DNA of 24,000 nt from Thermacetogeniaceae bacterium (GTDB lineage Bacteria; Bacillota; DSM-12270; Thermacetogeniales; Thermacetogeniaceae), in NCBI GenBank assembly GCA_050013155.1, contig JBEKFU010000027.1, positions 10,318-34,317 on the forward strand. The letters run 5' to 3'. Below, piece by piece: positions 2,945 to 20,912 of this stretch. A program made the translations under genes and the position numbers. The notes below the pieces were generated by a model that worked only from the letters and a program-made list of their open reading frames with translations, did no database searches and was not told the DNA's origin. Within the stretch, counting starts at the first letter, position 1. Each line of letters starts with the position of its first letter.

Positions 2945-3955
2945 TTACCTGGGGTCGACCGTCCCTGTCGCCAGGAAGCCGTTGATGGTGACGGTGAGGA
3001 TGGGCAACCCTGTCGTGGTGGTTCCGGTCTGAGTGAAGATGAGCGAGCAGGTTGTGGCGCTGTCGTGGGCAACTCCCACAACGTCGACGAATTCGAGCGG
3101 GATCGGGAACGATACCAGTTTGCCCAGAAACGTGAATTGGACAACGTCGATGGCGCCCTCTAAGCCGCCGATCGTGGGGAAGCTCGCCGTTCCGGTCAGG
3201 TCGGTGGTTGCGATGGCGACCTGTACGCCGGCCCTGTAGATGTAAACCGTCACGCCCGAAGCAGGGCCGTTCATGCCCAGGCCCAACAGGACGACCGTCG
3301 GGGTGCCCTGACAACGCTCCGGCGGGAAGAGCGGCGTGGGCGGGCACGCGAACCCGGGTTGTGCCAAGAAGGTGCATGCCGGTACCTCGCAGAAGCCGTA
3401 GCTCGGCACCAGCAGCTTCACAGGGGCCGTCACCTGGATCTCCTTGCAGATCTTGCCGGTGCAGGCGAGCACTACCGGCAGGCCTGTCGGGCTGGCGAGC
3501 AAGGTGCAGGTGCAGTCGCCGAAGCTCAGGATATCGCACGTGATATTAGTTCCGGGCGGTACCCACAGATCTGCCCGTGCCGCTCCCGCCAGGGTGAGAG
3601 TGGGCGTGCAGACCGTTACGCCGGCCACGAGAATGGGAGCGCTGACCTGGAATGAGTTGATCACCAGCACCTCTTCGAAATACGGCGTCAGTGGCGGTGT
3701 CACCGCCACTGTCCCGGCGAAGGTACAGGTTGCGCTACCCGGAATAGGGCTGCAGGCAACGGCGGCGCCCGCCGGTATGGTGACGCCCGGGCAGGCCGAT
3801 GAAACAGGTATCTGGCTGGTTACGAGTTCCTCGGTAAAGCACTGGTCGTAGACCTTGTTGACCAGGATGCAGTCCTTGGCGGTAAACGACGGGCAGGTTG
3901 GTATGGTCACCCCTGCGATCACTGTAAATCCGCATTCGCCTGGCGTAATTGGCAT
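2945..3955 (-). CDS. Cys-rich (about 18 Cys), Thr/Pro/Val-rich 336-aa hypothetical structural protein with no signal peptide. The C-terminal ~110 aa look like a CarboxypepD_reg/Cna-B-type beta-sandwich. Candidate spore coat/exosporium protein.
   Basis: ATG 3955 has AGGAGGG 7 nt upstream; the track ORF starts 28 codons earlier without an RBS. Motifs VTIPAGAAVAC and GSATC are shared with the 174-aa protein. GPASGVTVYIYRAG..TTDLTGTASF fits the regulatory-domain pattern (recalled from memory, not searched). Confidence 0.65.
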   Translation of the reverse strand: MPITPGECGFTVIAGVTIPTCPSFTAKDCILVNKVYDQCFTEELVTSQIPVSSACPGVTIPAGAAVACSPIPGSATCTFAGTVAVTPPLTPYFEEVLVINSFQVSAPILVAGVTVCTPTLTLAGAARADLWVPPGTNITCDILSFGDCTCTLLASPTGLPVVLACTGKICKEIQVTAPVKLLVPSYGFCEVPACTFLAQPGFACPPTPLFPPERCQGTPTVVLLGLGMNGPASGVTVYIYRAGVQVAIATTDLTGTASFPTIGGLEGAIDVVQFTFLGKLVSFPIPLEFVDVVGVAHDSATTCSLIFTQTGTTTTGLPILTVTINGFLATGTVDPR

Positions 3956-4103
3956 ATGGTTTCCCTCCTGATGAAGATTTTTTAAGAGTACAGTCAATTG
4001 GTTAATCGTGACTGGTGATACATTATACGGTAAATACAAAGAAATGTGATTCCTCTCGGTAACAGTTCTCCTAAATTTTTCATATCGTAATTAGGTAGCA
4101 ATC

Positions 4104-5153
4104 ATGTCTGGATCAACAGGTGTATGGCGCATGGATAGTCATGAGGGCACAGTCGGCCAGGATACCGGGCAGCGCAGGGAGAAGACGCTACGCAACATCT
4201 CCATCCTCAAGCAGGCACTGGCGGAGAGACCTGGCGATCCCTTCCTGGGCTACAATCTCGGCCTCAGCTTCTATGCCCTGGGAGATTTGGAAAACTCCCG
4301 CCACCATTATGAAGCGGTCAGGCAGCATCTCGATCCCGGAGACATGTTTACTGCGACGTTTTTCCGAAACTACGCCATCTGCCTGGGCGACCTGGGTGAC
4401 TTCGCGCAAGCGCTCAACCTGATCGACGAGGGCCTGGCCTGTTTTCCCGACTACCCTGACCTGTACTTTATCAAGGGGGAGCTTCTTTTTGACCTGAACC
4501 TGATGGCCCAGGCAAAAGACAGTTTTTTAAAGTGCCTTCGCTTCCATGCCCTGCCGGAATATGTCACCACCGAGGGGGTCACCGGCCACCTGGCGCTTCA
4601 GAATCTGGCCGAGGTCTGCGCCCGTCAACAGGATCTCGATGAGGCCGTGGCCTATCTCGAACAGGTATTGAGAATCAGGCCTGCATATGAATTGTTTGCC
4701 CAGTTATGCTCGCTGATGAGGCAAAAGGGTCTGAATGAGGGTGAGGTGGCAAAATACCTGGAAAACGGCTTCCACCTCGACCACCCTGCAATTGCCCGGC
4801 TACTGCTTGACATCAAGGAGGCAGGTTACAGCCGGGAGGACCTGCAACAACTGGAGGACGCCCTGCACGGCGGTATCGCCACAGCCGGTGTCTACTACCT
4901 GCTCGGCACGGCATGCGCCAATCTCGACAGGCACGACCAGGCCTTCGTGTACTTCGCTCAGGCTGGTCTGCAGGAGCCCGGCAATGAACTCTATGCCGCC
5001 TGCGCTCTGGAACAGCTTGCCAGCCAGTGTCTGCTGCACATCACCAGGATGCTTGACCTGGAAAATGGACAGGTGGAACTGCGCAAGGAGCTGTTCAGGT
5101 TGGCATCCCTGAGACACAAGGCACAACGGCTTAAACAGGACCTGCTGCCTTGA
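4104..5153 (+). CDS. TPR-repeat protein; a stand-alone paralog of the TPR module of the adjacent glycosyltransferase
   Basis: TPR-like helical repeats throughout. RNISILKQALAERPGDPFLGYNLGLSFYALGDLENS aligns with KRNLKLLGITADKEKDGFFYYNLGVEHLRLREMEKA in the next protein. An alternative start is ATG 4131, with AGGTG 8 nt upstream. Confidence 0.75.
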   Translation: MSGSTGVWRMDSHEGTVGQDTGQRREKTLRNISILKQALAERPGDPFLGYNLGLSFYALGDLENSRHHYEAVRQHLDPGDMFTATFFRNYAICLGDLGDFAQALNLIDEGLACFPDYPDLYFIKGELLFDLNLMAQAKDSFLKCLRFHALPEYVTTEGVTGHLALQNLAEVCARQQDLDEAVAYLEQVLRIRPAYELFAQLCSLMRQKGLNEGEVAKYLENGFHLDHPAIARLLLDIKEAGYSREDLQQLEDALHGGIATAGVYYLLGTACANLDRHDQAFVYFAQAGLQEPGNELYAACALEQLASQCLLHITRMLDLENGQVELRKELFRLASLRHKAQRLKQDLLP

Positions 5154-5180
5154 GAAGTGAGAGGTGGGAATGACGTAACG

Positions 5181-7556
5181 ATGGAACAGGTGACTCTGAG
5201 CCTCTGCATGATCGCCAAAAACGAATCCGGGAATATTGGGCGCTGCCTGCAGAGCGTCAAGGATTTTGTGGACGAGATCATCGTCGTCGACACCGGCTCC
5301 ACCGACGATACCGTAGACATTGCCCGGGACATGGGAGCGACGGTGATCGAGACGGAATGGCAGGATGATTTCAGCCTCGCCCGCAACGCCTCACTCGATA
5401 GGGCGACCGGGGACTGGATCCTCTTCCTTGACTGCGACGAGGAACTGGCCCCCGGGAGCGGCTCCGAGCTGCGGGCGCTGATCCGGGACAGCCGCTATGA
5501 AGCCTACTTCATCCAGGTGTCCAACCTGACGGAAACGGGCTCCAAGTTCCTCGCTCCCAGCGTGCGCCTGTTCAGAAACAGAAAGGCCTTTCGTTTCGAG
5601 GGCCGGATCCATGAGCAGATCGCCACCTCGATCATTGCCAATAAGGGCCAGCAGAGCATCGGGCAGTGCAGCATCTCGATCATCCACCACGGTTACAACG
5701 GGCAGCAGTCCAACATCCAGGCAAAAATCAAGAGAAACCTGAAACTCCTGGGTATCACGGCAGATAAAGAAAAAGACGGTTTCTTCTATTACAACCTGGG
5801 TGTGGAGCACCTCCGCCTCAGGGAAATGGAAAAGGCCCTCGATTGCTTTTTAAAAGCCGCCAAACTGACGGCGGCCAACCTGGGGTATGCCCCAATCCTT
5901 GCTCTCAGAACCGCTACCACCCTGATGGACATGTCCAGGTACCGTGATGCTGTCAGGCACCTGAAATACTACCAGGGTATTTACGGGAATTTCAACGACC
6001 TGTTTCTCCTGGAGATGCTCTGTTACCTGCACTGCGGTTGGTACTCACAGGCCGGCGAATGCCTGCAGAGGTATTTCGCCATGCCTCCCGCCCCCACCTG
6101 GTATCCAACAGAAACGAACTACTGCGGGACTTCGGCCGAAGAATACAGGGACTGGCTGCAGGGGCGCCCCATCCCCAAGGATTATCCGGGGATCAGTGCC
6201 TGCATTATTGGCAGGGACGAGGCGGACCATATTCGCCACTGCATTCACGGCATCAACGAGATCGCCAGGGAGGTGATCTACGTCGATACGGGCTCGACCG
6301 ATGATACCCCGGCCATCGCTTTCCAGCATGGAGCGAAGGTCTTCGCCACCCCGTGGTCCGGCAGTTTCTCCGTGGTGCGCAATCTTAGCCTCGATCAGGC
6401 CTCAGCAGAGTGGGTCCTGGTTCTGGACGCCGATGAGATGCTGCCGGAAGAGAGCAAAAAACAGATTGTGGAGTTGCTCAAGAAGGCCCCGCCGGATGAG
6501 GGCGGGTATATCCTGAAAATCTGCACCTTCCTCGATGGCAGCATATCCCCTGCCAACTGCCACATTACCGGAAGCTGCAGGCTGTTCCGCCGGGTACCCG
6601 CCCCGGGTACCCGGCAAGGCGGGCACGGCCCGGATGCTCGCTACCGGGGAGCGGCCGGTGAAGAGGTAGTCACATCACTGCAGGCATCCGGCCAAACCGT
6701 TGCCCCGGCAGAGATCACCGTCAACCACCTACACTACCAATCAGAACCAAAAAGCATCGCCCGAAAAAGACAGTGGAAAATCGATGCCATCAACCAGGGT
6801 CTGCAGGAGGACCGCCTCACCTGCAACTACTTGCTGGGCACGGAGCTTTTCTACGCCCGGGACTTCGACGCGGCATCAGACCGCTTTGAAGCCTGCCGCA
6901 AGCTGAGCGATATGGCCTGTACGCCGGACTTTTTCTATTACTACGCCCTGTCCCTGATCAATACCCGGGATTACAACTGTGCAGTGGGAATCCTGGAGGA
7001 GGCATCGGGACTCTTCCCGGATTATACCGATTTGACCTACCTGCTGGCAGTTGCCCATAGCGCCCTGGGGAACACAGAGGCCGCAGAAACGCTGTTGCGC
7101 CGCTGCCTGGAACTGGGTGACGCCCCCTGGCAGAAGTACCTTGCCAGCCCGGGAACGGGAAGTTTCAAGGCAATGTACTCCCTGGGGACGGTCTTGGCGC
7201 AGCGGGGTCTCTTCTCCGAAGCTGCCGACCTGCTTTTTCAAGCCACTGCCCTGCCCGGGGGATTTGAGCAAGCCATTGAAGGCATCGTCATTTTGAGCGA
7301 TAAACTGGATGTCCCGCTGGAGCAGATATTAGAGGAGAAGGGGCTCCTAAATCCCGTGAGCATCAGCGCCGTCGCCAAAACCTGCGCCAAAATGCTGCGC
7401 TTCCAGGACAGCCTGCGCTACCTGGACATGGCCTACGACGAGGTTGTCAAGGGGCCGGCGCCGAGAAACTTCACCTGCATCATTCAGGCCATCGACCTGT
7501 TGATCAAGATGTTCTGCCGCGGCCCGGCGCCGGGCGCTGAACCCGCGATCTGTTGA
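5181..7556 (+). CDS. Tandem glycosyltransferase with architecture GT2 - TPR - GT2 - TPR
   Basis: GT2 module 1 spans about 5195-5695 (MIAKNES..EIIVVDTGSTDDT..ARN..DWILFLDCDEE..RLFRN..GRIHEQ). GT2 module 2 spans about 6190-6745 (ACIIGRDEA..EVIYVDTGSTDDT..VRN..EWVLVLDADEM). Helical TPR-like segments follow each module. ATG 5181 gives the usual N-terminus; the track start GTG 5157 has no RBS. Confidence 0.85.
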   Translation: MEQVTLSLCMIAKNESGNIGRCLQSVKDFVDEIIVVDTGSTDDTVDIARDMGATVIETEWQDDFSLARNASLDRATGDWILFLDCDEELAPGSGSELRALIRDSRYEAYFIQVSNLTETGSKFLAPSVRLFRNRKAFRFEGRIHEQIATSIIANKGQQSIGQCSISIIHHGYNGQQSNIQAKIKRNLKLLGITADKEKDGFFYYNLGVEHLRLREMEKALDCFLKAAKLTAANLGYAPILALRTATTLMDMSRYRDAVRHLKYYQGIYGNFNDLFLLEMLCYLHCGWYSQAGECLQRYFAMPPAPTWYPTETNYCGTSAEEYRDWLQGRPIPKDYPGISACIIGRDEADHIRHCIHGINEIAREVIYVDTGSTDDTPAIAFQHGAKVFATPWSGSFSVVRNLSLDQASAEWVLVLDADEMLPEESKKQIVELLKKAPPDEGGYILKICTFLDGSISPANCHITGSCRLFRRVPAPGTRQGGHGPDARYRGAAGEEVVTSLQASGQTVAPAEITVNHLHYQSEPKSIARKRQWKIDAINQGLQEDRLTCNYLLGTELFYARDFDAASDRFEACRKLSDMACTPDFFYYYALSLINTRDYNCAVGILEEASGLFPDYTDLTYLLAVAHSALGNTEAAETLLRRCLELGDAPWQKYLASPGTGSFKAMYSLGTVLAQRGLFSEAADLLFQATALPGGFEQAIEGIVILSDKLDVPLEQILEEKGLLNPVSISAVAKTCAKMLRFQDSLRYLDMAYDEVVKGPAPRNFTCIIQAIDLLIKMFCRGPAPGAEPAIC
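6594..6629. repeat. 36-nt GC-rich palindromic insertion (encodes VPAPGTRQGGHG) within the second GT2 module
   Basis: Module 1 reads LFRN-RKAFRFEGRIHEQ. Module 2 reads LFRR-[VPAPGTRQGGHG]-PDARYRGAAGEEV. The DNA contains direct GGGTACCCG x2 and the CCCGCC/GGCGGG stem, and shares GGTACCCGC with 2610. Confidence 0.5.
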
Positions 7557-7646: not shown

Positions 7647-8171
7647 TCATCCAGCGTAGTATTTGATCCGGTCCTCGCTGCACGGAACAGTTTCTACGCA
7701 AACAGTCGTGGGATCACAGAGATTGGTCACATGAAGGGAGATGGTAACTTGGCCGGAAACAGAAGTCGGCGTCGTTTCGATGCTGCCGGGGTCACAGGTG
7801 GCAGAGCAGGTTACTTTGGGTTCGCCGCACCCGCACGGACAGAGGGTGACACCGGCAGGCAGAGTAATGCAAGCCGATTGTCCGGTTATATCGCAGAAAT
7901 CCAGGAAGGTGCATGAACAGACGCATTTAAGGTCAGCTTCGTCCTTCTCGCGGTGGTGCTTGTCGAGATAGGCATATTCAAACTGGGCATCATAGGAAAA
8001 GCGTAGCGTCGGCGGCGTTGTGCTCAAATCCAGTTTGGCATCATAACAGCAAACGTTGCACTGGTTACCCGGTGCGACAGGCGTGAAGCAAGGGTCGTGA
8101 CAGGTCAACGTTATGGCTAAGACTGGATCGAATGAGGTGACTTCATAGGCACAAAGCTTAATTAATGGCAT
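7647..8171 (-). CDS. Very Cys-rich (19 Cys in 174 aa) hypothetical protein with no signal peptide. Candidate spore coat/exosporium cross-linking protein.
   Basis: ATG 8171 has AAGGAGG 7 nt upstream. Cys clusters are CNVCC, CVCSC and CPCGCG. The motif ITLPAGVTLC...TCSATC is shared with the 336-aa protein. Confidence 0.7.
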   Translation of the reverse strand: MPLIKLCAYEVTSFDPVLAITLTCHDPCFTPVAPGNQCNVCCYDAKLDLSTTPPTLRFSYDAQFEYAYLDKHHREKDEADLKCVCSCTFLDFCDITGQSACITLPAGVTLCPCGCGEPKVTCSATCDPGSIETTPTSVSGQVTISLHVTNLCDPTTVCVETVPCSEDRIKYYAG

Positions 8172-8246: not shown

Positions 8247-8298
8247 TAAAAAATAACAGTTGTGCTCATGGTTAAAAAATAACAGTTGTGCTCATGGT
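8247..8298. repeat. Perfect tandem duplication, 2 x 26 bp (TAAAAAATAACAGTTGTGCTCATGGT)
   Basis: 8247-8272 equals 8273-8298 exactly. The repeat sits between the fumarase-beta stop codon and the promoter region of the Cys-rich gene. Confidence 0.95.
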
Positions 8299-8299
8299 A

Positions 8300-8908
8300 T
8301 TATATTCCGGAAAACCTGCCTCTGTGGAAGAGATTGACAGGGGAGTAGGTATGGAGTTGGCGATAGCTGGCAGGGCCAGTCTGATACAGGTTCCGGCCGC
8401 GGCTATCGATGGCTACGGTGGCGGGGAAGTCCTCGATCACGAAGCGCCACAGCGCCTCGGTGCCCAGGTCATGATAGGCGACCACCTGCGCCTCTTTGAT
8501 GCAGTGCGACAGCAGGGCGCCGGCCCCGCCGGTGGCCGCCAGGTAAACGGCGCCGTTCTGCCGGATGGCCGCAATCACATCGGGGCTGCGGTCGCCCTTG
8601 CCGATCATCCCTCGCACTCCGTAGGCCAGCAGTTGGGGCGTGAAGGCGTCCATCCGCCCGGCGGTGGTCGGCCCCGCCGCTCCGATGACCCGGCCTGGAC
8701 GTGCCGGAGTCGGTCCCACGTAGTAGATGACCTGCCCTCTCAGATCTACCGGCAGGTCCTGGCCTCGAGCCAGGGTTTCGGCAAAACGCCGGTGCGCCTG
8801 GTCACGCGCCCCGAAGATCACTCCGGACAGCAGCACCTGCTGTCCAGCCTGCAGCGCCCTTGCCGTTTCCGCATCGAAGGGCGCCTTAATCCGCATGCAT
8901 TCATCCAT
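8300..8908 (-). CDS. Class I (Fe-S) fumarate hydratase / tartrate dehydratase family, beta subunit (C-terminal domain protein)
   Basis: LSGVIFGARDQAHRR..VIYYVGPTPARPG..GPTTAGRMD..GMIGKGDRS..AVYLAATGGAGALL matches the Fe-S hydro-lyase beta family. ATG has GGAGGAG 5 nt upstream. Confidence 0.9.
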   Translation of the reverse strand: MDECMRIKAPFDAETARALQAGQQVLLSGVIFGARDQAHRRFAETLARGQDLPVDLRGQVIYYVGPTPARPGRVIGAAGPTTAGRMDAFTPQLLAYGVRGMIGKGDRSPDVIAAIRQNGAVYLAATGGAGALLSHCIKEAQVVAYHDLGTEALWRFVIEDFPATVAIDSRGRNLYQTGPASYRQLHTYSPVNLFHRGRFSGI

Positions 8909-9050
8909 TCTATCTCCTCCAGGAGCAGACAGGGGGACGGTTCTTTGTCCAAGTAGTGTTTTGGACTATGTTAAGCGCTGGGTCATTCTATATGCCGCCT
9001 TGCTGTCAATCCGGCTGGCCTTGCACAATTTGCTTTTGTAATGCGCGCTG

Positions 9051-9902
9051 CTATTGCCCGGACCATATCCAGGTTTTATGCCGCAGGGCGTGGCAACCGA
9101 TGTTCACCGCCACCGGCAGCCCGGCGATGTGGGTCGGATAAGTCTCCACATGCACGGCCAGGGCGGTCACCCGGCCGCCGAGCCCCTCGGGGCCATAACC
9201 CAGGCCGTTGATCGCCGCCTTCAACTCGCTTTCCAGGGCAGCCAGGTTCGGGTCCTGGTTGGGCTCATCCAGCGGCCGCAGCAAGGCTTTCTTGGCTAGC
9301 AGCAGGGCCTTGTCCGCCGTTCCCCCCAGGCCGACCCCTACCGATACCGGCGGACACGGGTTCGCCCCGGCCCGATCCACTGCCGCCACCACGAACTGCC
9401 TGACCCCCGCCAATCCGTCCGCAGGTTTCAACATGCCCAGGGCGGTGCAGTTCTCGCTGCCGAATCCCTTGGGCATGATGGTGATGCGGAAGCCGTCCCC
9501 GGGCACGATGTCGTAATAGACCACCGCCGGGGTGTTGTCGCCGCTGTTCACCCTGCGCAAAGGATCAGCAACCACCGAGGCGCGCAGATAACCGTCCCGG
9601 TAGCCCCGGGCCACCCCCCGGTTGATGGCGTCAGCCAGGCTCCCGCCGGTGATATGGAGATCCTGGCCGACCTCCACGAAGGCGAGTACCATCCCGGTAT
9701 CCTGGCAGACGGGGACCCGCCCCGATGCAGCGACCCCGGCGTTGGCACAGAGCTCGTTCAGGATGCGCCGCCCGGTGGGGGAATCCTCCTGCTGCCCGGC
9801 CTCATCGAGGGCAGACAGCACATCGGGTGGGAGGTCAAAATTAGCCTCCTGGCAGAGAGCGGCCACCTTGTCCGCTATCAGGTCTGCGCCGAGTTCCCGC
9901 AC
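9051..9902 (-). CDS. Class I (Fe-S) fumarate hydratase / tartrate dehydratase family, alpha subunit
   Basis: VCQDTGMVLAFVEVGQD..YLRASVV.DPL.R.N.GDNTPAV..MPKGFGSEN..PCPP..VGVGLGGT is typical of the family. GTG start has AGGAGG 8 nt upstream, inside the murI 3' end. Confidence 0.9.
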   Translation of the reverse strand: MRELGADLIADKVAALCQEANFDLPPDVLSALDEAGQQEDSPTGRRILNELCANAGVAASGRVPVCQDTGMVLAFVEVGQDLHITGGSLADAINRGVARGYRDGYLRASVVADPLRRVNSGDNTPAVVYYDIVPGDGFRITIMPKGFGSENCTALGMLKPADGLAGVRQFVVAAVDRAGANPCPPVSVGVGLGGTADKALLLAKKALLRPLDEPNQDPNLAALESELKAAINGLGYGPEGLGGRVTALAVHVETYPTHIAGLPVAVNIGCHALRHKTWIWSGQ

Positions 9903-9903
9903 G

Positions 9904-10848
9904 CTACTGTCCTCCTGCGCCGCATTCGCAATTACTCTCGTTCAGGCTAACTTGCTCGACCTGGAACGGGAAATCGCCCAGAAACTGCCTACCGGAGGAG
10001 TAGAACGAGGCAGTAGCGCCGCTGGCGAAGAAGCGGTGCTCTGTCAGGCCCTGCGCCGCCGCACCCGCTGAAGCGGGTTCCCGGCGCCCGCAAGCAACGG
10101 CGCCGGGTCCGCGCCCGCAAGCGGGCTCCCGCCCGGAGCGCCGGGCGCGGCCGCGCCCATCCCCGCCGGCGGCGTCCGTCTGTAAGGCAAGCAGGGCAGC
10201 CAACTCTTTTACCGTCTCTTCGGCCGGGTCCACCACCTCCACCGCTTCTCCGGCCAGTTCTCTGATCACCGGCGCCAGGAAGGGATAGTGGGTGCAGCCC
10301 AGCACTATGGTATCCACCCCAGCCTCCTGAAGTGGCTGCAAATACTGCCGGGTCGCGGCCCGGACCTCCGGACCGTCGATCTTCCCCGACTCCACCAGGG
10401 GAACGAACTGGGGGCAGGCCTGGGCAAACACCGTCACCCCCGGATCGTAAGCCTGGAAGCCACGAGTATAGGAGCCGCTGTTGACGGTGGCGGCGGTGGC
10501 CAGGACACCGATCCGCCGGTTGCCGGTGACCTGCAGGGCTGCCCTTACTCCGGGCTCCACCACGCCCAGCAAGGGCAGGTGGTACTTCCGGCGGAGCACC
10601 GGCAGCGACACCGAAGTGCTGGTGTTGCAGGCGGCAACCACCACCTTGACATCAAACCGCAGCAAGAAAGAAAGGATCTGGTCGCCGAAAGCGATAATCT
10701 CCGCAGAGGGGCGCGGGCCGTAAGGAACCCGGGCCGTATCCCCGAAATAGACAATGCTCTCATCCGGCAACTGCTTCAGTATCTGCCTGACCACACTCAA
10801 ACCGCCCACACCGGAATCGAAAACGCCGATGGGTTGACTGCTGTCCAA
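9904..10848 (-). CDS. murI: Glutamate racemase, carrying a ~40-aa GC-repeat-encoded insertion near the C-terminus
   Basis: IGVFDSGVGGLSV, VVAACNTSTS and LGCTHYPF contain both catalytic Cys motifs. TTG start. Confidence 0.9.
   Translation of the reverse strand: MDSSQPIGVFDSGVGGLSVVRQILKQLPDESIVYFGDTARVPYGPRPSAEIIAFGDQILSFLLRFDVKVVVAACNTSTSVSLPVLRRKYHLPLLGVVEPGVRAALQVTGNRRIGVLATAATVNSGSYTRGFQAYDPGVTVFAQACPQFVPLVESGKIDGPEVRAATRQYLQPLQEAGVDTIVLGCTHYPFLAPVIRELAGEAVEVVDPAEETVKELAALLALQTDAAGGDGRGRARRSGREPACGRGPGAVACGRREPASAGAAAQGLTEHRFFASGATASFYSSGRQFLGDFPFQVEQVSLNESNCECGAGGQ
10045..10175. repeat. GC-rich hairpin cluster (family B) translated in frame inside murI
   Basis: A string of short GC hairpins (ACCCGC-TGAA-GCGGGT, GGCGCC..GGCGCC, GCCCGC-AA-GCGGGC, GCGGCCGC). 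It contains CCGCGCCCGCAAG (10109-10121), the reverse complement of the 13-mer at 14939 and 18523. It encodes DAAGGDGRGRARRSGREPACGRGPGAVACGRREPASAGAAAQG. Confidence 0.7.
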
Positions 10849-12063: not shown

Positions 12064-12151
12064 CGAATTCTGTAACTCTTCAGGGTAGACCCCATGCCGC
12101 AACCGTTGGCACCGTCAGAGCATTCGAAGGGAAAGGCCAATCGAACATCGA

Positions 12152-12264
12152 ACTTCCCGGTGTGCAGGCGGGGCTTTCCTCCGCATCCGGGCTGCGCCCG
12201 GCCTGAAGGCCGGCTCAAGGCTCCGCCTTGGCTGAAAGCCCGCCGGCACACCGGGAATGCGGAG
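12152..12264. repeat. GC-rich structured intergenic repeat (family A, opposite orientation to the 1087 copy)
   Basis: 12179-12258 is about 90% identical to 21389-21469. An outer ~24-bp stem pairs TTCCCGGTGTGCAGGCGGGGCTTTC with GAAAGCCCGCCGGCACACCGGGAA. CTCCGCAT...ATGCGGAG interleaves with that stem (pseudoknot-like or alternative folds). Confidence 0.8.
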
Positions 12265-12294
12265 CACAGGAAGCCTGCCAACATCGAGGACGTC

Positions 12295-12939
12295 CTATTC
12301 CTGTTTGTTAACAAAGGTCAGGTTGCGGAGCAGCGGCTCATCGATCGGGATGTGCCCTGTCAGGGTGTCTTTCTTCTGGCCGCCAACCAGGATCTGCACC
12401 CGCTTCACGTTGTGGAACTCTGTCAGGGTGTCCACCAGGGCATAGACCGCCAGCGCCTCATCCTTGGGCCTGAGCTTGTCCTTGGCCACAGATCCCGCCA
12501 GGTCGACCACACAGGTGCCATTGGTCTTGATATTGACGCTGCGCACCTGCACACCTGCCGGGATGCTTGCTATGGCGTCAACACCCTGGGCAGGCCCCAG
12601 GCAGAGGGCGTCCACGATTTCCTTGGCAATCCCCGGCGCCTTGTCCACCTCAATGGTGGTGGGCACCAGGTAGCGGCCTTGCTTATCCTTGAAGTAGACC
12701 GTCACCTTGGTTTTTTCCACCTGGGGCGGCGGATTGCTCAGGCCTCCGGTGTTAAGGTCGGGCACGCCCTGGTCAACTGTTGGTTGTCCCTCCAACGCCT
12801 GCAGCTTTTCCGTCAGGTTGCAGCCTCCGCCCACTACCAGAAAAGCAGCCACCATGACGACCAGAAATACCAACCGCAGGTGAAAGAGGCGCCGCTCCTT
12901 TTCTTGCTCCTTCAACTTCTCAAAATTCCACACGTTCAC
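12295..12939 (-). CDS. gerM: GerM-like lipoprotein (GerMN domain; sporulation/germination)
   Basis: An N-terminal TM/signal segment ends in the lipobox-like VVGGGC. It is followed by VTVYF.D..G.YLVP....V....IAKE.V.AL..GP......IP.G....SV.I..G...VDL...... , which is typical of the GerMN domain. Confidence 0.75.
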   Translation of the reverse strand: MNVWNFEKLKEQEKERRLFHLRLVFLVVMVAAFLVVGGGCNLTEKLQALEGQPTVDQGVPDLNTGGLSNPPPQVEKTKVTVYFKDKQGRYLVPTTIEVDKAPGIAKEIVDALCLGPAQGVDAIASIPAGVQVRSVNIKTNGTCVVDLAGSVAKDKLRPKDEALAVYALVDTLTEFHNVKRVQILVGGQKKDTLTGHIPIDEPLLRNLTFVNKQE

Positions 12940-13002
12940 CTCTCCTTCCTTAATATGGTTTTTAATGTCTCATTAATCCTATGATGGAAGGAGGGGTTTT
13001 AT

Positions 13003-14960: not shown

Positions 14961-15015
14961 TGCGCTGATGGCCGCACACTCGTGACTTAGGTCATGAGAG
15001 GTTCAAGCAAGGACA

Positions 15016-15046
15016 GGGGCCACGGAAAAACGTGGCCCCTTCCTGT
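15016..15046 (+). terminator. Hairpin GGGGCCACG-GAAAAA-CGTGGCCCC followed by TTCCTGT
   Basis: 9-bp GC stem at 15016-15024 / 15031-15039. The T-tract is weak. Confidence 0.5.
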
Positions 15047-15314
15047 ATGACGCATTTGTCTCTGCTTTCTGCTGGAGTTATTTTAAGTTAATTTTAGCAA
15101 TTACCTAGGACATTAGTAATATATAAATTAATTTCCTAACCCTACGTAAATTATGAAACTATTAGCAGGAAAGAGGAATCGCTTATCGAATCTTACGACT
15201 AAGAATGAATCAATTTCCAAAGGAAGAAACATTATCTAACTCTTATTTACAATGTACCTTTTTTAATCTTATATGCCAACTTTACGATTATTTGCCTTTA
15301 TGAGGTAAATTATC
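15047..15314 (+). promoter_or_regulatory. Strikingly AT-rich regulatory island upstream of the agr-type operon, with candidate promoter TTTACA - 18 nt - TATATG
   Basis: The composition shift is visible by eye relative to the flanking GC-rich DNA. -35 at 15246-15251 and -10 at 15270-15275. TTACGA-containing motifs recur at about 15203 and 15281. Confidence 0.35.
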
Positions 15315-15791
15315 ATGGCAAATGTAACGCTGTTAAATTCATTAATAGCCATGGTGCTGCAGGACTTTCCGGAGAGCCTGGTGGTCGCCATGCTGGCCTT
15401 CAGCCTGCTTAATTTTCGCTTCCAGGCTAAAAAGATTTTAACCGTCGCCGCCTTGCAGGCCGTCACCAACCAGTTGCAGCTTTTCAACATCAATTCCGGT
15501 GTCCACGTCGCCGTCATGGTCGTCTCCCTGGCCATCTACATCCGGGTCCTCGCCAGGCCCATCCTGAGCCGCTCCTTGCTGGCAGCCCTGATCAGTTACC
15601 TGGTTTTATTAATCGTGGAAGCAGCATCTGTCCCCCCGCTTTTAAAGATTATCGGATTGGCCTTACCTGCCGCTTATGCCAATCCCTTCCTGCGATCGGC
15701 ATTCACCCTGCCCTACGAGGTTGTCCTGCTGCTGGCGGCCTTGGCTAAGAACTACTACAACCGCAAGAGGGGGCTAATCGTTGAGACCTGA
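15315..15791 (+). CDS. Polytopic membrane protein (158 aa, ~4-5 TM), first gene of the agr-type operon. It is possibly an AgrC-like sensor module without a kinase.
   Basis: Hydrophobic segments run throughout. Its 3' end overlaps the agrB start by 11 nt. The N-terminus LQDFPESLVVAMLAFSLLNFRFQAKK recalls N-termini of AgrC-type sensors (weak recollection, not searched). Confidence 0.65.
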   Translation: MANVTLLNSLIAMVLQDFPESLVVAMLAFSLLNFRFQAKKILTVAALQAVTNQLQLFNINSGVHVAVMVVSLAIYIRVLARPILSRSLLAALISYLVLLIVEAASVPPLLKIIGLALPAAYANPFLRSAFTLPYEVVLLLAALAKNYYNRKRGLIVET

Positions 15792-16431
15792 GATCGTCCG
15801 GCCTGCCGCCGCCTACTTGAGGGAACAACTCGACCTGACCCCGGACCAGGAAGCGGTCGCGGTCTTCGGCCTGCAGACGCTCCTCTATCCCGCCCTGGAT
15901 TTCCTCTGTTTCTGCCTGGCAGGCTGGCTGCTGGGCTGCCTCGCCGCCACCGCCGTGGTTGCCCTGGCCACGTTTGTGCTGCGCCTTTTTGCCCACGGGG
16001 CGCACAGCAGGTCGCCGCTCACCTGCGCCCTGCTCGGTGTGATCGTGGTCCCGGCGCTCGGCAAGACAGCGGTACTCGCCGCCCCCCTTTTCACCGGCCC
16101 AGAATTAGCACTGGTTGTCACCCTCGGGTTCCTCGTCGTCATAGGCGCCGTCTGGCGCCTGGCGCCCGCCGATTCCCCCGCCAAGCCGGTCACCGCGGGC
16201 GAGGAGCGCCAAAGGCTGCGCCTCTACTCGCTCCTCGTCGTGCTGCTGATCACGGCCGGCCAGTCGGCGCTCCTGCTTACCGGGGCGCAGGCTTATCCGG
16301 TGGTGCTGGCCATGAGCTTCGGCCTCTGGTGGCAGGCCTTCACCCTGACGGGGGCCGGGCACCGGTTCGCCGTGCTGTTGGACGATGTCTTTACCAGAAA
16401 GGAGGGAAAGTTAGATGAAGCGTCTAATTAG
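15781..16431 (+). CDS. agrB: AgrB-family membrane peptidase, which processes and cyclises the AgrD propeptide
   Basis: LRLFAHGAHSRSPLTC aligns with S. aureus AgrB IRRHAHGAHAPSSFWC (catalytic His/Cys region). LAPADSPAKPV aligns with YAPAATKKKPI. The protein is multi-TM. TTG start has AGAGGGGG 7 nt upstream. Confidence 0.9.
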   Translation: MRPEIVRPAAAYLREQLDLTPDQEAVAVFGLQTLLYPALDFLCFCLAGWLLGCLAATAVVALATFVLRLFAHGAHSRSPLTCALLGVIVVPALGKTAVLAAPLFTGPELALVVTLGFLVVIGAVWRLAPADSPAKPVTAGEERQRLRLYSLLVVLLITAGQSALLLTGAQAYPVVLAMSFGLWWQAFTLTGAGHRFAVLLDDVFTRKEGKLDEASN

Positions 16432-16546
16432 TATCCTGTTGCCGTCTCTCTTCAGTGTTCTTGTCGCTGCAGCCCTGATCGGCGTCAAGCCAATGTGCGG
16501 TGTTTTTTTGTACCAACCTGAAGTGCCCGCCGTCCTGAAGAAGTAA
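16415..16546 (+). CDS. agrD: AgrD-type autoinducing peptide precursor, 43 aa: MKRLISILLPSLFSVLVAAALIGVKPMCGVFLYQPEVPAVLKK
   Basis: Below the ORF-track size cutoff. ATG 16415 has GGAGGG 8 nt upstream and overlaps the agrB 3' end by 17 nt. It has a hydrophobic N-terminal helix, a single Cys followed by 4 residues (CGVFL), then YQPEVPxxL. Compare S. aureus ..CDFIM-DEVEVPKEL. Confidence 0.8.
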   Translation: MKRLISILLPSLFSVLVAAALIGVKPMCGVFLYQPEVPAVLKK

Positions 16547-16583
16547 ACACTCAACACCGCAGCAATGGTCGCCCCTGACCCGC

Positions 16584-16626
16584 GGCGCCCAGGGCGATAC
16601 CCGTCTTGGGCGCCACCCTATTTTTT
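16584..16626 (+). terminator. Weak terminator-like hairpin GGCGCCCA...TGGGCGCC followed, after 6 nt, by TTTTTT
   Basis: 8-bp stem at 16584-16591 / 16607-16614. T-run at 16621-16626. Confidence 0.4.
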
Positions 16627-16627
16627 C

Positions 16628-16658
16628 TTGTCGGTCCCCCTGGAAGCCATGCTATAAT
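16628..16658 (+). promoter_or_regulatory. Extended -10 promoter (TTGTCG - 19 nt - TGcTATAAT) for the GGDEF/HD-GYP gene
   Basis: -35-like element at 16628-16633, TG at 16650-16651 and TATAAT at 16653-16658. Confidence 0.5.
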
Positions 16659-16715
16659 AGAAACAGGATTTAACAGCCATCTCGAGGCCATTCCGGGAAC
16701 GGCGGGGAAAGTAAG

Positions 16716-18383
16716 ATGCGCGACTGGGAAACCAAGCGAGCGAACGAGATTTCGGAAAACATCCTGGTCACCCACATCATCAGCCTGTTGATCTTCATGA
16801 TGATCATCTTCAGTCTTTTCGGCGCCCCGTTGGGACAGCAAATACAGATACAATACCAAACTACTATCATACTTATCATATTTTGCCTGGGAATAGTCAT
16901 TTATATCGCCCGCAAGCTGCTGGCCCGGTTCACCTTCATGGACCAGCCCCGCATCGACGAGATCCTGCTCCTGGCGATCACTCTCCCGATCACCTTCGGC
17001 TTCTTCTGGTACAGCAAGGGCTTTATCGGGGGCACGGTGCTGTTGATCATCCCGGCCATCATCACCGCCATCGCCTTCGGGAAGGTGGCCGGCGTCGGGG
17101 AGGCCCTGCTTTCCTGCGGGCTGCTCTTTCTATTGGACCACATTTTATATGGAACTATTCCGGCCGGGGCCTTCCAGGCCAACCTCATCATCACCGGGGT
17201 CACCACGCTCATGGCCTGGGTGGTGGGCGGCCTGATCGAGGTGGAGCGGCGTACCCAGCAGGAACTGCTCAAGCTGGCCGACTACGACCCCCTGACCGGC
17301 CTGATCAACTACCGCTTCCTGCAGGAGAGGCTGGCCGTCTCCCTGCGGCAGGCGGTCGCCGGGGCGTATCCGCTGTCACTGGCCCTGCTGGACATCGACC
17401 AGTTGAACTACTACAACCAGGTGTACGGCTACCAGAAGGGGGACGAGATTCTGAGGGTAATCGGCGGGCTGCTGCAGGAAGAGGTCCGGGAGCCCTGTTA
17501 CGCCGCCCGGTATGGCAGCGATGAATTCATGCTGGTGCTGCCGGGGCAGGATAAACCATCAGCCCGCAGGATCGCCGGAGGGATCACCGAAAAACTGGTC
17601 CGGCAGGCCACCGCAACGCTGCTGGAAAACCGTTCCACCGCCTCCTGGAGAGACTTCACCATCTCCACCGGCCTGGCCTGCTGCCCGGATGGCGGAAATG
17701 CCGTACTGCAGTTGATCCGGTCGGCTGAAGACGACCTGTTCAGGGTCAGGTACAGCAAAGCGGACTACATGTACCACTCCGTGGTCAGCGAGATCAGCAC
17801 CCTGTCGGTCAGGGACGCTTTTCCCACCCTGCATACCTTCATAACCATGATCAACTACAAGGACCGGTACACCCACGGCCACTCGGAACGGGTGATCGCC
17901 TACTCCCTGGCCATTGGGGATAGGCTTGGCCTGACCGAGTTCGAGATGGACATTCTCAGGTTCTCCGCCTACCTGCACGACATCGGGAAGATCGAGATCG
18001 ACAATTCAATATTGAACAAGGCCGAGGACCTGGAGGGGGACGAGTGGGATTTCATGATGAACCACCCGATCCACGGAAGCGAACTGCTCAAACCCCTGGT
18101 TGCCTACCTGCCGTTGGTCCCGATCATCCGTTCGCACCACGAAAACTACGATGGGTCCGGCTATCCGGATGGCCGCCGGGGCGAGGACATCCCCCTGCTG
18201 GCGCGCATCATCCGCATTGCCGACAGCTTCGATGCCATGACCACCTGTCGTCCCTACCGCCGGGCGATGATCCTGGACGAGGCCTGCGCAGAGCTGAAAG
18301 CTTACGCCGGCTCCCGGTACGACACCCAACTGGTATACATGTTCCTGGACATCGTGAAGAATATCTACCAGCCAGCCTGCTGA
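16716..18383 (+). CDS. Membrane-anchored (~6 TM) signalling protein with a degenerate GGDEF domain and an HD-GYP c-di-GMP phosphodiesterase domain
   Basis: Six hydrophobic helices span residues ~15-190. GGDEF fold: DYDPLTGL..YGYQKGDEIL..ARYGSDEFMLVL (GSDEF instead of GGDEF, no RxxD). HD-GYP: HGHSERV, YLHDIGKIEI, HHENYDGSGYPDG, RIIRIADSFDAMT..RPYR. Confidence 0.9.
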   Translation: MRDWETKRANEISENILVTHIISLLIFMMIIFSLFGAPLGQQIQIQYQTTIILIIFCLGIVIYIARKLLARFTFMDQPRIDEILLLAITLPITFGFFWYSKGFIGGTVLLIIPAIITAIAFGKVAGVGEALLSCGLLFLLDHILYGTIPAGAFQANLIITGVTTLMAWVVGGLIEVERRTQQELLKLADYDPLTGLINYRFLQERLAVSLRQAVAGAYPLSLALLDIDQLNYYNQVYGYQKGDEILRVIGGLLQEEVREPCYAARYGSDEFMLVLPGQDKPSARRIAGGITEKLVRQATATLLENRSTASWRDFTISTGLACCPDGGNAVLQLIRSAEDDLFRVRYSKADYMYHSVVSEISTLSVRDAFPTLHTFITMINYKDRYTHGHSERVIAYSLAIGDRLGLTEFEMDILRFSAYLHDIGKIEIDNSILNKAEDLEGDEWDFMMNHPIHGSELLKPLVAYLPLVPIIRSHHENYDGSGYPDGRRGEDIPLLARIIRIADSFDAMTTCRPYRRAMILDEACAELKAYAGSRYDTQLVYMFLDIVKNIYQPAC

Positions 18384-18626: not shown

Positions 18627-18953
18627 CTAGCCATGTAGCACGAAAACCCCCGTCACGAGCAGACCCCCGAACCAGGAATAAACGAACAGACTCAGATAGT
18701 AGATGAAGGTCTGGGCAGCCACCAGCAGGGGCAGGTTCTTGACAGTCTGGTGCGCCTGCACAAAACTCATTCCCAGGGCGGTGTTGGCCAGGAAGATCAG
18801 GGGCAAGACACAGAGGTTGTAGCGGACCACCGCCGCGCCCACCAGGACGGGCACACTCCCCGGCGATATCAGCTTTACCTGCAGCGCCAGTAAAAAAGAC
18901 AACACGACAGAACCGAACACCAGCAAAATCGCCGACAGGACCAACCCGATCAC
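18627..18953 (-). CDS. Small 4-TM membrane protein (108 aa); SMR/EamA-half-like size and topology, function unknown
   Basis: Four hydrophobic segments. No conserved SMR Glu in TM1. Coding is assumed from length and hydrophobic periodicity. Confidence 0.55.
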   Translation of the reverse strand: MIGLVLSAILLVFGSVVLSFLLALQVKLISPGSVPVLVGAAVVRYNLCVLPLIFLANTALGMSFVQAHQTVKNLPLLVAAQTFIYYLSLFVYSWFGGLLVTGVFVLHG

Positions 18954-19409: not shown

Positions 19410-20912
19410 TTGAAAGTACTGCTGGTGTATCCAAGGTATCCGGACAGCTTCTGGAGCTTCAAATACGCCCTGCCTTTCATCAACAAAAAGGCTGCGAACC
19501 CGCCGCTGGGGCTGTTGACGGTGGCCGCCATGCTGCCCGCAGCCTGGGACAAGCGGCTGATCGACATGAATACCAAGAAAATTACTGACGACGACCTTCG
19601 CTGGGCCGATTACGTGTTCATCAGCGCCATGAACATCCAAAAAGCCTCGGTCAAGGAGATCCTGAGCCGCTGCCAGGCCCTCGGCGTGAAGACCGTGGCC
19701 GGAGGGCCGCTATTCACCATGGAGCCGGAGGAGTTTCCAGAGGCCGACCACCTGGTGCTGGGAGAGGCGGAGGCCACCCTGCCGCCCTTCCTCAAGGATC
19801 TGGAACAGGGCACGGCAAGACACATCTACAACACCAGCGAGCGGCCGGCCATGAACAACACGCCGGTGCCCGCCTGGGAGTTGATCAACAGCAAGGACTA
19901 TGCCTGCATGGGCATCCAGTACTCCCGGGGCTGCCCCTACGATTGCGAGTTCTGCGACATCACCTCCCTCTATGGACGCGTGCCGCGCCTGAAGGACACC
20001 CACCAGTTCATAAGGGAACTCCAGACCATCTACGACACCGGCTGGAGGGGCTCGGTCTTCGTGGTGGACGACAACTTCATCGGCAACAAGAACCGGTTGA
20101 AGAAAGAGGTCCTGCCGGCCATGATCGCTTGGATGGAGTTGCACCGCTATCCATTCACCTTCACCACCGAGGCCTCCATCAACCTTGCGGATGACAATAC
20201 CCTGCTAGAACTGATGCGGCAGGCGGGATTCAATCACGTCTTCATCGGCATCGAGACCCCCAGCGAGGAGAGCCTCAAGGAGTGCAACAAGTTCAACAAC
20301 GTCAACCGCAACCTGATCGCCACGGTGAAAAAGATCCAGAATTACGGGATGGAGGTCAGCGCCGGCTTCATCGTCGGCTTTGACAGCGACACCCCATCGA
20401 TCTTCGAGCGGCAGATCAGCTTCATTCAGCAGAGCGGCATCATCACCGCCATGGTGGGGCTGCTGAGCGCCCCCAGGGGAACACGGCTGTTCGAGCGCCT
20501 GAAAGCGGAGAAGCGGCTGTTGTCCGAGTGCACCGGCAACAACACTGACTTTTCCTTGAACTTCATCCCCAAAATGAACCCCCAGAGGCTGGTGGAGGGC
20601 TACCAGAGCATCGTCACCACCATCTACGACCCGGCCGCCTTCTACGAGCGGGTGTACAAATTTTTCAAGGAATTCAAGCCACTCAAACGGAAGCGCGCCC
20701 AGCGCTTCCGGCTGGTCTACATCAAAGGCCTGCTGCAGGCGATGTTCTACCTGGGCGTGCTACAGAAGGGCCGGCGCCACTACTGGAAACTGCTGTTCAA
20801 GACCACCTTCCGCTACCCGCGCTTCCTGCCGGAAGCGGTGATCTTCTCCGTCTACGGTTTCCACTTCCGGAAAATCTTCGGGCAGATGCCCCGCCTGGAG
20901 GGTGAGAGCTAG
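19410..20912 (+). CDS. B12-binding-domain radical SAM protein with a DUF4070-type C-terminus (HpnR/BchE-like class B rSAM; substrate unknown)
   Basis: N-terminal KVLLVYPRYPDSFWS...PPLGLLTVAAML fits a cobalamin-binding Rossmann-like domain. QYSRGCPYDCEFCDI is the CxxxCxxC motif. A long helical C-terminal extension follows. TTG start has AGGAG 8 nt upstream. Confidence 0.85.
   Translation: MKVLLVYPRYPDSFWSFKYALPFINKKAANPPLGLLTVAAMLPAAWDKRLIDMNTKKITDDDLRWADYVFISAMNIQKASVKEILSRCQALGVKTVAGGPLFTMEPEEFPEADHLVLGEAEATLPPFLKDLEQGTARHIYNTSERPAMNNTPVPAWELINSKDYACMGIQYSRGCPYDCEFCDITSLYGRVPRLKDTHQFIRELQTIYDTGWRGSVFVVDDNFIGNKNRLKKEVLPAMIAWMELHRYPFTFTTEASINLADDNTLLELMRQAGFNHVFIGIETPSEESLKECNKFNNVNRNLIATVKKIQNYGMEVSAGFIVGFDSDTPSIFERQISFIQQSGIITAMVGLLSAPRGTRLFERLKAEKRLLSECTGNNTDFSLNFIPKMNPQRLVEGYQSIVTTIYDPAAFYERVYKFFKEFKPLKRKRAQRFRLVYIKGLLQAMFYLGVLQKGRRHYWKLLFKTTFRYPRFLPEAVIFSVYGFHFRKIFGQMPRLEGES

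Follow-up and report, generated by a model that had tools for sequence, protein, structure and literature searches.

Our understanding of peptide signalling through agr comes almost wholly from the AgrC/AgrA two-component paradigm. In many clostridia and other anaerobic spore-formers, agrBD stands without a linked agrCA pair: in 2013 the receptors for AgrD1 and AgrD2 of Clostridium botulinum were "not yet described" (PMC3673130), and that for AgrD1 of C. difficile "remains elusive" (PMC10602386). Here, we analyse a four-gene locus in a 24,000-nucleotide (nt) stretch of DNA from a Thermacetogeniaceae bacterium (assembly GCA_050013155.1, contig JBEKFU010000027.1, positions 10,318 to 34,317 of the forward strand); we call this whole stretch the window and give the coordinates of the locus within it. 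From gene content and comparative genomics we consider it probable that the locus is an agr-type quorum-sensing cassette in which AgrC and AgrA have been replaced by a receptor of another class, a protein with six transmembrane (TM) helices followed by a GGDEF and an HD-GYP domain (6TM-GGDEF-HD-GYP). Its six-helix N-terminus, hereafter the TM module, may explain the missing receptors of the clostridia and spore-formers just mentioned.

The list of open reading frames (ORFs) places four genes on the same strand at 15315–18383, where a preliminary description of the window had put them: memb, agrB, agrD and the 6TM-GGDEF-HD-GYP gene. The first three overlap, memb and agrB by 11 nt and agrB and agrD by 17 nt, in agreement with the translational coupling that had been proposed for them. 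The gene after agrD encodes the GGDEF-HD-GYP protein, and domain scans of the larger ORFs across the 24-kb window found no HisKA, HATPase, Response_reg or LytTR domain and so no histidine kinase or LytTR regulator; the earlier statement that none follows agrD thus extends to the whole window.

These genes are linked in other genomes as well. The 555-aa product of the fourth gene is identical to an annotated protein from a Thermacetogeniaceae metagenome-assembled genome, and it has full-length homologues in many Bacillota, down to 33% identity. Around five divergent homologues, from Neomoorella glycerini (56%), Desulfallas thermosapovorans (40%), Natranaerobius trueperi (34%), Orenia metallireducens (34%) and a Syntrophomonadales metagenome-assembled genome (34%), the same arrangement was found every time, on one strand: a protein of 152–163 aa without a Pfam match, AgrB, an ORF of 41–43 aa and then the sensor gene, with outer genes that all differ. 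The cassette is present in 26 further GTDB species, including Clostridium sardiniense, C. tepidum, C. gallinarum, Romboutsia maritimum and Syntrophaceticus schinkii. The four genes occur together in Thermacetogeniaceae, Moorellaceae, Desulfotomaculia, Syntrophomonadia, Natranaerobiales, Halanaerobiales, Peptostreptococcaceae and Clostridium sensu stricto, and further carriers are Desulfoscipio, Syntrophomonas, Caldicoprobacterales and Christensenellaceae. Conservation of the cassette extends over seven or more Bacillota orders or classes, in which its flanking genes are unrelated. A metagenome scan that started from memb returned a single locus, in which the full cassette was present.

For a controlled count, one genome per GTDB species was scanned with the full-length family alignment, which gave 80 GGDEF-HD-GYP loci, and custom hidden Markov models of memb, AgrB and the TM module, built from the first cassettes, were run on six-frame ORFs. 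The TM module was found in 28 of the 80 loci; all 26 that were assessable had memb and AgrB directly 5' of it, in the order memb-agrB-agrD, versus none of the 52 loci with another N-terminus, where neither memb nor AgrB was found at any position (Fisher's exact test, p = 3e-21). Strict controls with at least 1.5 kb of upstream sequence gave the same answer (0/39, p = 1e-18). One locus (L021), cut by a contig end, was left out as not assessable. In Moorella mulderi (L026, 5013–6535) the sensor-GGDEF-HD-GYP gene is a pseudogene: ~53 residues are missing from its N-terminus, a frameshift splits it, and memb and agrBD are absent, so that the locus resembles a decayed remnant of a cassette. The preliminary description had proposed a comparison of synteny between agrBD and TM-GGDEF-HD-GYP genes and had named a lack of conserved linkage as grounds for giving up its idea; because the comparison came out strongly positive (26/26 versus 0/52), that ground falls away, and the linkage is strict.

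The TM module defines a family that reaches beyond this one kind of protein. When 1.84 billion representatives were searched exhaustively with HMMER (E<=1e-3), it turned up in 181 clusters at 50% identity; this search replaced one by word index with profiles of 19 TM modules, which had returned only two matches, its index having been swamped by hydrophobic words. The module is N-terminal, starting within about the first 25 residues in the full-length matches listed, and among the best 150 of the 181 clusters the C-terminus is a histidine kinase in 60 and GGDEF plus HD-GYP in 37, the rest being mostly fragments.

Several of the kinase versions lie within or beside the same cassette. In a Halanaerobiales locus (L018) the order is memb-AgrB-AgrD, then the sensor-GGDEF-HD-GYP gene, then a sensor-HisKA-HATPase gene. 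Two other loci (L088 and L089) have a sensor kinase immediately 5' of memb-AgrB-AgrD, and in L089 a GGDEF-HD-GYP protein is encoded 3' of agrD. Clostridium tepidum (L020) carries, in this order, memb-AgrB1-AgrD1-sensor-GGDEF(RYGGEEF)-HD-GYP, a GNAT gene, a memb-like gene with a 617-aa sensor-PAS-HisKA kinase, and memb-AgrB2-AgrD2. A further locus (L090), which has no agrBD in the vicinity, carries a degenerate memb-like gene (4306–4794) followed by the gene of a 952-aa sensor-PAS-GAF-kinase. None of the HisKA fusions has an adjacent response regulator except for the DegS/NarL pair in L088, where memb-AgrB-AgrD is followed by a kinase of the DegS type (HisKA_3) and a response regulator of the NarL/GerE type (8476–10337), besides the upstream sensor-module PAS kinase. 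In L087 (100–7235), where the contig end cuts off what lies 5' of a sensor-module PAS-HisKA kinase, a spoIIAA-spoIIAB-sigF-like operon (STAS, HATPase_c_2, sigma-70) comes a few genes after this kinase.

Judged by its fusions, the TM module is a swappable input domain. Fusion of the same module to kinases in or beside the same cassette is what one would expect of a swappable ligand-sensing input, and the fact that agr linkage tracks the membrane module and not the output domain is the strongest argument that this input would be agr-derived. Because relatives fuse the module to either output, one peptide system can, we suggest, feed c-di-GMP (cyclic di-GMP) turnover, phosphorylation or both. The earlier idea that the polytopic HD-GYP protein could be the sensor of the autoinducing peptide (AIP) thus gains support from comparative genomics, through the linkage and the kinase fusions, with binding of the peptide itself a prediction.

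The TM module has no match above threshold in Pfam or NCBIfam. Distant members come near two families over helices 3–6, namely DUF4118 (E = 7e-6 to 1e-3; 19–26 bits, cut-off 28.4) and 6TM_PilS (E = 0.005–0.011; 16–17 bits, cut-off 27), and one of 19 sequences matches KdpD (E = 6e-4); the 555-aa protein of the window matches none of the three. The likeness to the sensor modules of DUF4118/KdpD and PilS is therefore weak, with all scores below the curated cut-offs, and we know of no agr linkage for these families. The preliminary description had proposed a comparison of the N-terminus with AgrC sensor modules, and this revealed no similarity: the AgrC model NF046015 was matched by none of the 19 TM-module sequences at E<=1 and not by the full 555-aa protein at E<=0.1. 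In the PDB there is neither a sequence nor a fold relative of the module.

The 555-aa protein (16716–18383, plus strand) joins this module to a GGDEF domain (PF00990, E = 2.4e-28, residues 188–345) and an HD-GYP domain (HD_5, PF13487, E = 3.5e-36, residues 375–539). Its AlphaFold2 model (predicted local distance difference test score 84) has six N-terminal helices, at residues 3–35, 47–73, 80–100, 104–121, 123–145 and 150–189, which agrees with the roughly six proposed before; the sixth is one unbroken helix that runs into the GGDEF domain. The HD-GYP domain is intact, as had been claimed, and both of its motifs, HDIGK and HHENYDGSGYP, are invariant in 75 homologues. The GGDEF domain keeps the substrate and metal residues D226, D228, N234, D243 and R265 and departs from the GG[DE]EF signature (RYGSDEF), and an RxxD I-site is not present five residues upstream of the signature, where the sequence is VREPCYAARYGSDEF. 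The earlier reading of this domain was accurate as to RYGSDEF and the missing I-site, and its word "degenerate" is partly apt: the second glycine alone is replaced, and across the 75 homologues that position is G (33 of them keep GG[DE]EF), S, N, D, T or A.

Since the HD-GYP motifs are invariant in the homologues while the second glycine of the GGDEF signature drifts, the conserved activity is most likely hydrolysis. In this organism the complete HD-GYP motifs, the GSDEF variant and the lack of an I-site make the 555-aa protein probably a net phosphodiesterase, whose GGDEF domain would be regulatory or else only weakly or conditionally active. The solved HD-GYP proteins PmGH (4mcw), PA4781 (4r8z) and V-cGAP3 (5z7c) align with it over ~160 residues of the HD...HHExxDGxGYP core (E = 1e-40 to 4e-21), the closest being V-cGAP3 (1e-40) and then PmGH (2e-31). 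These differ at their N-termini, which are REC, GAF-like or tandem HD-GYP, and none has 6TM plus GGDEF. With a GGDEF domain attached, c-di-GMP is the parsimonious substrate.

The genes in front of it have the makings of a peptide signal. AgrB scores 99.7 bits against PF04647 (cut-off 23 bits) and has the His/Cys region FAHGAHSRSPLTC (GAHS...C), as described before; the pattern GG(A/I/V)H-x3-P-x2-C is kept in the cassette AgrBs. The 43-aa AgrD, likewise identified correctly at the outset, scores 33.3 bits against TIGR04223 (cut-off 19 bits). Its full sequence is MKRLISILLPSLFSVLVAAALIGVKPMCGVFLYQPEVPAVLKK, with the C-terminal part ...KPMCGVFLYQPEVPAVLKK, and it is laid out as a hydrophobic leader, Cys28 with GVFL (the predicted thiolactone ring) and a recognition tail, YQPEVPAVLKK. 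An AgrD follows all scanned AgrB genes but two, one at the end of L020 and the other in L024 (265–948). The 35 cassette AgrDs share [CS]-x4-5-[YHF][QE]PxxP, with leader and tail conserved and the four or five ring residues variable (GVFL, VFFF, IAWH, GGGF, VVGH, YWCV, LWYT and others); the ring position is Ser in the Natranaerobius AgrD and Cys otherwise. A variable ring between a conserved leader and tail is what one would expect if this ligand determines specificity. AgrB and AgrD are predicted to make a cyclic thiolactone peptide with the ring Cys28-Gly-Val-Phe-Leu.

Thus far the sequences show what the genes are, which motifs they carry, their strict conserved linkage and the swapping of domains; that the TM module binds the peptide, which way the peptide would regulate the protein, what the substrate is and what memb does are matters of prediction. 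By homology, AgrB would cleave and cyclise AgrD to the thiolactone peptide. The six-helix module may then sense the peptide at the membrane, alone or helped by memb, and the long helix that leads from TM6 into the cytoplasm, as modelled, could relay the signal to the catalytic domains. The output would be cyclic-dinucleotide turnover, most likely of c-di-GMP, so that the cassette would encode a peptide-regulated phosphodiesterase.

Several points weigh against a receptor role for the 555-aa protein. We assign that role through guilt by association, from genomics. A mirror-tree comparison (partial Mantel test) of the AgrD core with the TM module, with the cytoplasmic domains controlled for, gave a partial r of -0.11 (p = 0.87), in a test that is weak because the TM distances are saturated at ~0.75. 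As the TM module has no similarity to AgrC and no solved structural relative, the type of ligand cannot be inferred by homology, and as V-cGAP3, the closest solved HD-GYP protein, is specific for cyclic GMP-AMP, the substrate is not certain. A strong terminator-like hairpin lies between agrD and the sensor gene, and an agrCA pair may be present elsewhere in the genome, beyond the 24-kb window. The AIP of C. perfringens has been reported to act via the unlinked VirS/VirR (PMC10602386), and close relatives of C. perfringens carry the cassette; a linked c-di-GMP enzyme thus need not be the sole receptor. Finally, memb is linked just as tightly as the sensor, also with histidine-kinase versions that lack agrBD (L020, 7887–8285; L090), and could for this reason be the true ligand-binding partner.

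The preliminary description had treated memb in passing as a membrane protein; it is instead conserved and one of the genes that define the cassette. It has no match in Pfam or NCBIfam, and at E<=1 its matches are at chance level, among them one to the AgrC model (E = 0.064, in one of 11 memb sequences) and one to SpoIIGA (0.075), both of which we take as noise. Its 15 close homologues in the database are "hypothetical" or nameless. We also rejected the idea that memb broke away from the sensor or from AgrB, as hhalign probabilities between memb, the TM module and AgrB were below 4%. The family is marked by [IF]PE, by RxLPxxFGxH and, in a later helix, by a Glu that never varies, and the polar residues E14, H59 and E97 are near-invariant and membrane-embedded. 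In the window (15372–15515, residues 20–67) and in the closest relatives QLFNINSGVH replaces RxLPxxFGxH, with Arg and Pro lost and His kept; the memb proteins of distant cassettes retain the full motif. Two or three tandem memb paralogues lie 5' of agrB in L008 (2901–4070), L013 (3018–4196) and L030 (2127–3934). In Clostridium sensu stricto a DUF5317 membrane protein (PF17248, E ~1e-24) is encoded directly 5' of memb (L020, 2735–3280; L024, 2989–3540); it may correspond to CPE1563, the second "hypothetical" ORF of the C. perfringens agr operon.

There is precedent for accessory membrane proteins that act on sensor kinases through contacts in the membrane, and memb might do the same. The receptor would then be in two pieces: memb would bind the peptide, or a by-product of AgrD processing, and control the six-helix module by intramembrane contacts, leaving the 555-aa protein as the transducer. 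We regard this as unlikely, and it is the alternative that survives best. It would account for a linkage of memb as strict as that of agrBD, for the position of memb directly 5' of TM-module kinases without agrBD (in L020 before the kinase at 8305–10158, in L090 before the 952-aa kinase), for the tandem paralogues in three loci and for the three conserved polar residues in the membrane. As the first coupled gene of the AgrB/AgrD operon, however, memb would fit biosynthesis (leader removal, export) equally well; moreover, the memb of the window departs from the family motif, the memb-like gene of L090 has lost the E/H/E residues, and the protein has no homology to known receptors, the one AgrC-model match being at chance level. 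In C. perfringens two hypothetical ORFs 5' of agrB are co-transcribed with it, and complementation of an agrB mutant worked with a plasmid carrying the upstream ORFs and agrBD and failed with agrBD alone (PMC2706048); a need for a memb-like partner would explain this result, and promoter placement would explain it equally well.

A second alternative, which we hold to be quite improbable, is that the 555-aa protein is no receptor of the peptide at all. It would sense another cue, such as membrane state or a metabolite, and stay beside agrBD either because c-di-GMP and agr act on one and the same lifestyle switch or because AIP production is under its control, and the true receptor would be an unlinked kinase of the AgrC or VirS type. 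The report of VirS/VirR as the AIP receptor in C. perfringens is in keeping with this, as is the activation of agrB1D1 by RgaS/RgaR in C. difficile (PMC10602386), and the mirror-tree comparison found no signal of co-variation between AIP and TM module. The region between agrD and the sensor gene also suggests separate transcription of the sensor here. The preliminary description had called the hairpin at 16584–16614 weak; it is strong, with 13 pairs (10 of them G-C) followed by a T-run, and the region has a minimum free energy of -41.6 kcal/mol (z = -3.25). The TGnTATAAT promoter that it placed after the hairpin is present as TGcTATAAT; since a two-hexamer scan did not report it, we count it as a motif only. 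Against this alternative, immediate adjacency in 26 of 26 loci over class-level divergence and among unrelated flanks is something that co-regulation rarely yields, the linkage tracks the TM input module and not the GGDEF-HD-GYP or histidine-kinase output, and the sensor gene decays once agrBD is lost, as in L026.

That the six-helix module and memb act in AgrD processing or AIP export, tuned by c-di-GMP or GTP through the cytoplasmic domains, is very improbable: maturation of the AIP in S. aureus does need a second membrane protease, MroQ (PMC12312760), and memb has its conserved Glu/His/Glu, but an N-terminal polytopic module joined to GGDEF/HD-GYP or HisKA is the architecture of a sensor and not of a transporter, the histidine-kinase fusions have no obvious role in export, and neither memb nor the TM module matches a protease or transporter family.

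The reading of the six-helix module as the AIP receptor reaches the studied clostridia by several routes. The AgrD1 core of the C. tepidum locus (SSACYWCVYQPEEP) is the same as that reported for AgrD1 of C. botulinum, ACYWCVYQP, its AgrD2 has the ADSAC tail of C. botulinum AgrD2 (PMC12312760, PMC3673130), and the AgrD ring of Clostridium sp. B9, CLWYT, is one residue off the C. perfringens AIP, CLWFT (PMC12312760). C. botulinum also has the orphan kinases CBO0336 and CBO0340, proteins of 615 and 617 aa described as "5TM-PAS-HisKA-HATPase", with function given as ND (PMC11210211); by size, architecture and gene numbering, as taken from published descriptions, these would correspond to the kinase type of L020. 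The 90%-identity clusters followed towards the orthologues of C. botulinum, C. perfringens and C. difficile contain same-species proteins with generic names only, and public annotations of the cassette proteins are generic too: "diguanylate cyclase", "histidine kinase" and "hypothetical protein". Full-text searches of the literature found no paper that ties agrBD to a GGDEF/HD-GYP protein and no description of the 6TM module, in line with the earlier remark that no example was known, and an older comment on neighbouring genes is possible.

What was one odd locus has become a defined candidate: a family of 6TM sensors that counts about 180 clusters at 50% identity and has strict memb-agrBD linkage and interchangeable outputs, either c-di-GMP enzymes or orphan kinases. 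This family probably includes long-sought receptors of the orphan clostridial agr systems. A broader proposal, which we put forward tentatively as possible, is that the six-helix module and memb form an unrecognised family of AIP receptors and are the missing receptor of orphan agrBD across spore-forming Bacillota (the C. botulinum/C. sporogenes group and the relatives of C. perfringens and C. difficile), wiring the peptide to hydrolysis of c-di-GMP and, via orphan HisKA kinases of the CBO0336/CBO0340 type, possibly to Spo0A and sporulation. Were the candidate confirmed, a receptor for a peptide autoinducer would for the first time be seen to have a direct action on a cyclic-dinucleotide second messenger; this would offer a mechanistic route from agr to the sporulation, motility, biofilm and toxin phenotypes of clostridia and would add two new protein families, the sensor module and memb, to annotation.

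The features of the locus are collected in Table 1. Around the 5' end of the cassette the GC content falls to 0.505 over 15001–16000. On the plus strand no sigma-70 consensus was found in the presumed promoter region, where the matches of the promoter scan are on the minus strand only, and no Rfam family, the c-di-GMP riboswitch included, was found upstream of the cassette or elsewhere in the window.

Table 1. Coordinates within the window of the cassette genes, the domains of the sensor protein and the associated elements.
Feature	Position	Strand	Basis
Presumed promoter/regulatory region of the cassette, AT-rich	15030..15314	+	inferred
memb, 158-aa polytopic membrane protein of an unannotated family, first cassette gene	15315..15791	+	ORF
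AgrB, putative membrane endopeptidase/cyclase for AgrD	15781..16431	+	PF04647, E = 1.7e-28
AgrD, 43-aa autoinducing-peptide precursor	16415..16546	+	TIGR04223
Intrinsic-terminator-like hairpin and T-run, 3' of agrD	16584..16626	+	fold computation
TGcTATAAT, extended -10-like element, ~58 nt 5' of the sensor start codon	16650..16658	+	read from sequence
N-terminal 6TM sensor module, residues 1–178	16716..17249	+	AlphaFold2 models, family search
GGDEF domain, residues 188–350, RYGSDEF	17277..17765	+	PF00990
HD-GYP phosphodiesterase domain, residues 372–545, HDIGK and HHENYDGSGYP	17829..18350	+	PF13487

Other genes of the window call for brief mention. A 108-aa hydrophobic ORF on the minus strand (18627–18953) converges on the 3' end of the sensor gene and has a weak RhaT-like match below the cut-off (E = 0.0045). 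Downstream, a B12-binding radical SAM protein with DUF4070 (19410–20912, plus strand) is not kept beside the cassette in other genomes. A group of ORFs without a Pfam match (33–419, 454–1044, 1601–2770, 2945–4039 on the minus strand, 7647–8171 on the minus strand and 8288–8956) adjoins a TPR protein (4104–5153) and a GT2-TPR fusion (5157–7556). A 296-aa ORF on the plus strand (12094–12984) is antisense to a Germane-domain (spore germination) gene (12295–12939, minus strand) and is probably spurious, because the Pfam support sits on the minus-strand gene.

Set beside the described systems, the locus shares with staphylococcal agrBDCA the PF04647 His/Cys pair of AgrB, a short AgrD with a Cys-x4 ring and an acidic/Pro tail, a polytopic protein encoded right after agrD and a hypervariable ring. 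It differs in that the window has no AgrC-type (HATPase_c_5/HPK10) kinase or LytTR regulator, and in having an unrelated 6TM module, a GGDEF/HD-GYP output and an extra first gene, memb. The orphan clostridial agrBD loci (agrB1D1 and agrB2D2 of C. botulinum, CPE1563-CPE1562-agrB-agrD of C. perfringens and agr1 of C. difficile) are of the same cassette type, but the papers searched treat the loci as agrBD only, or turn to VirS for C. perfringens, and tie neither the adjacent GGDEF-HD-GYP gene nor CBO0336/CBO0340 to sensing of the AIP. Cell-cell signals also reach cyclic dinucleotides in the Rpf systems: RpfC/RpfG passes the diffusible signal factor (DSF) by phosphorelay to an HD-GYP protein, and RpfR is a PAS-GGDEF-EAL protein that binds the Burkholderia diffusible signal factor (BDSF). 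Both resemble the proposed system in leading from a cell-cell signal to c-di-GMP turnover, RpfR without a two-component step. Their signals, however, are fatty acids, their hosts proteobacteria and their inputs a kinase or a cytoplasmic PAS domain, whereas here we propose a ribosomal cyclic peptide and a 6TM module, in Bacillota.

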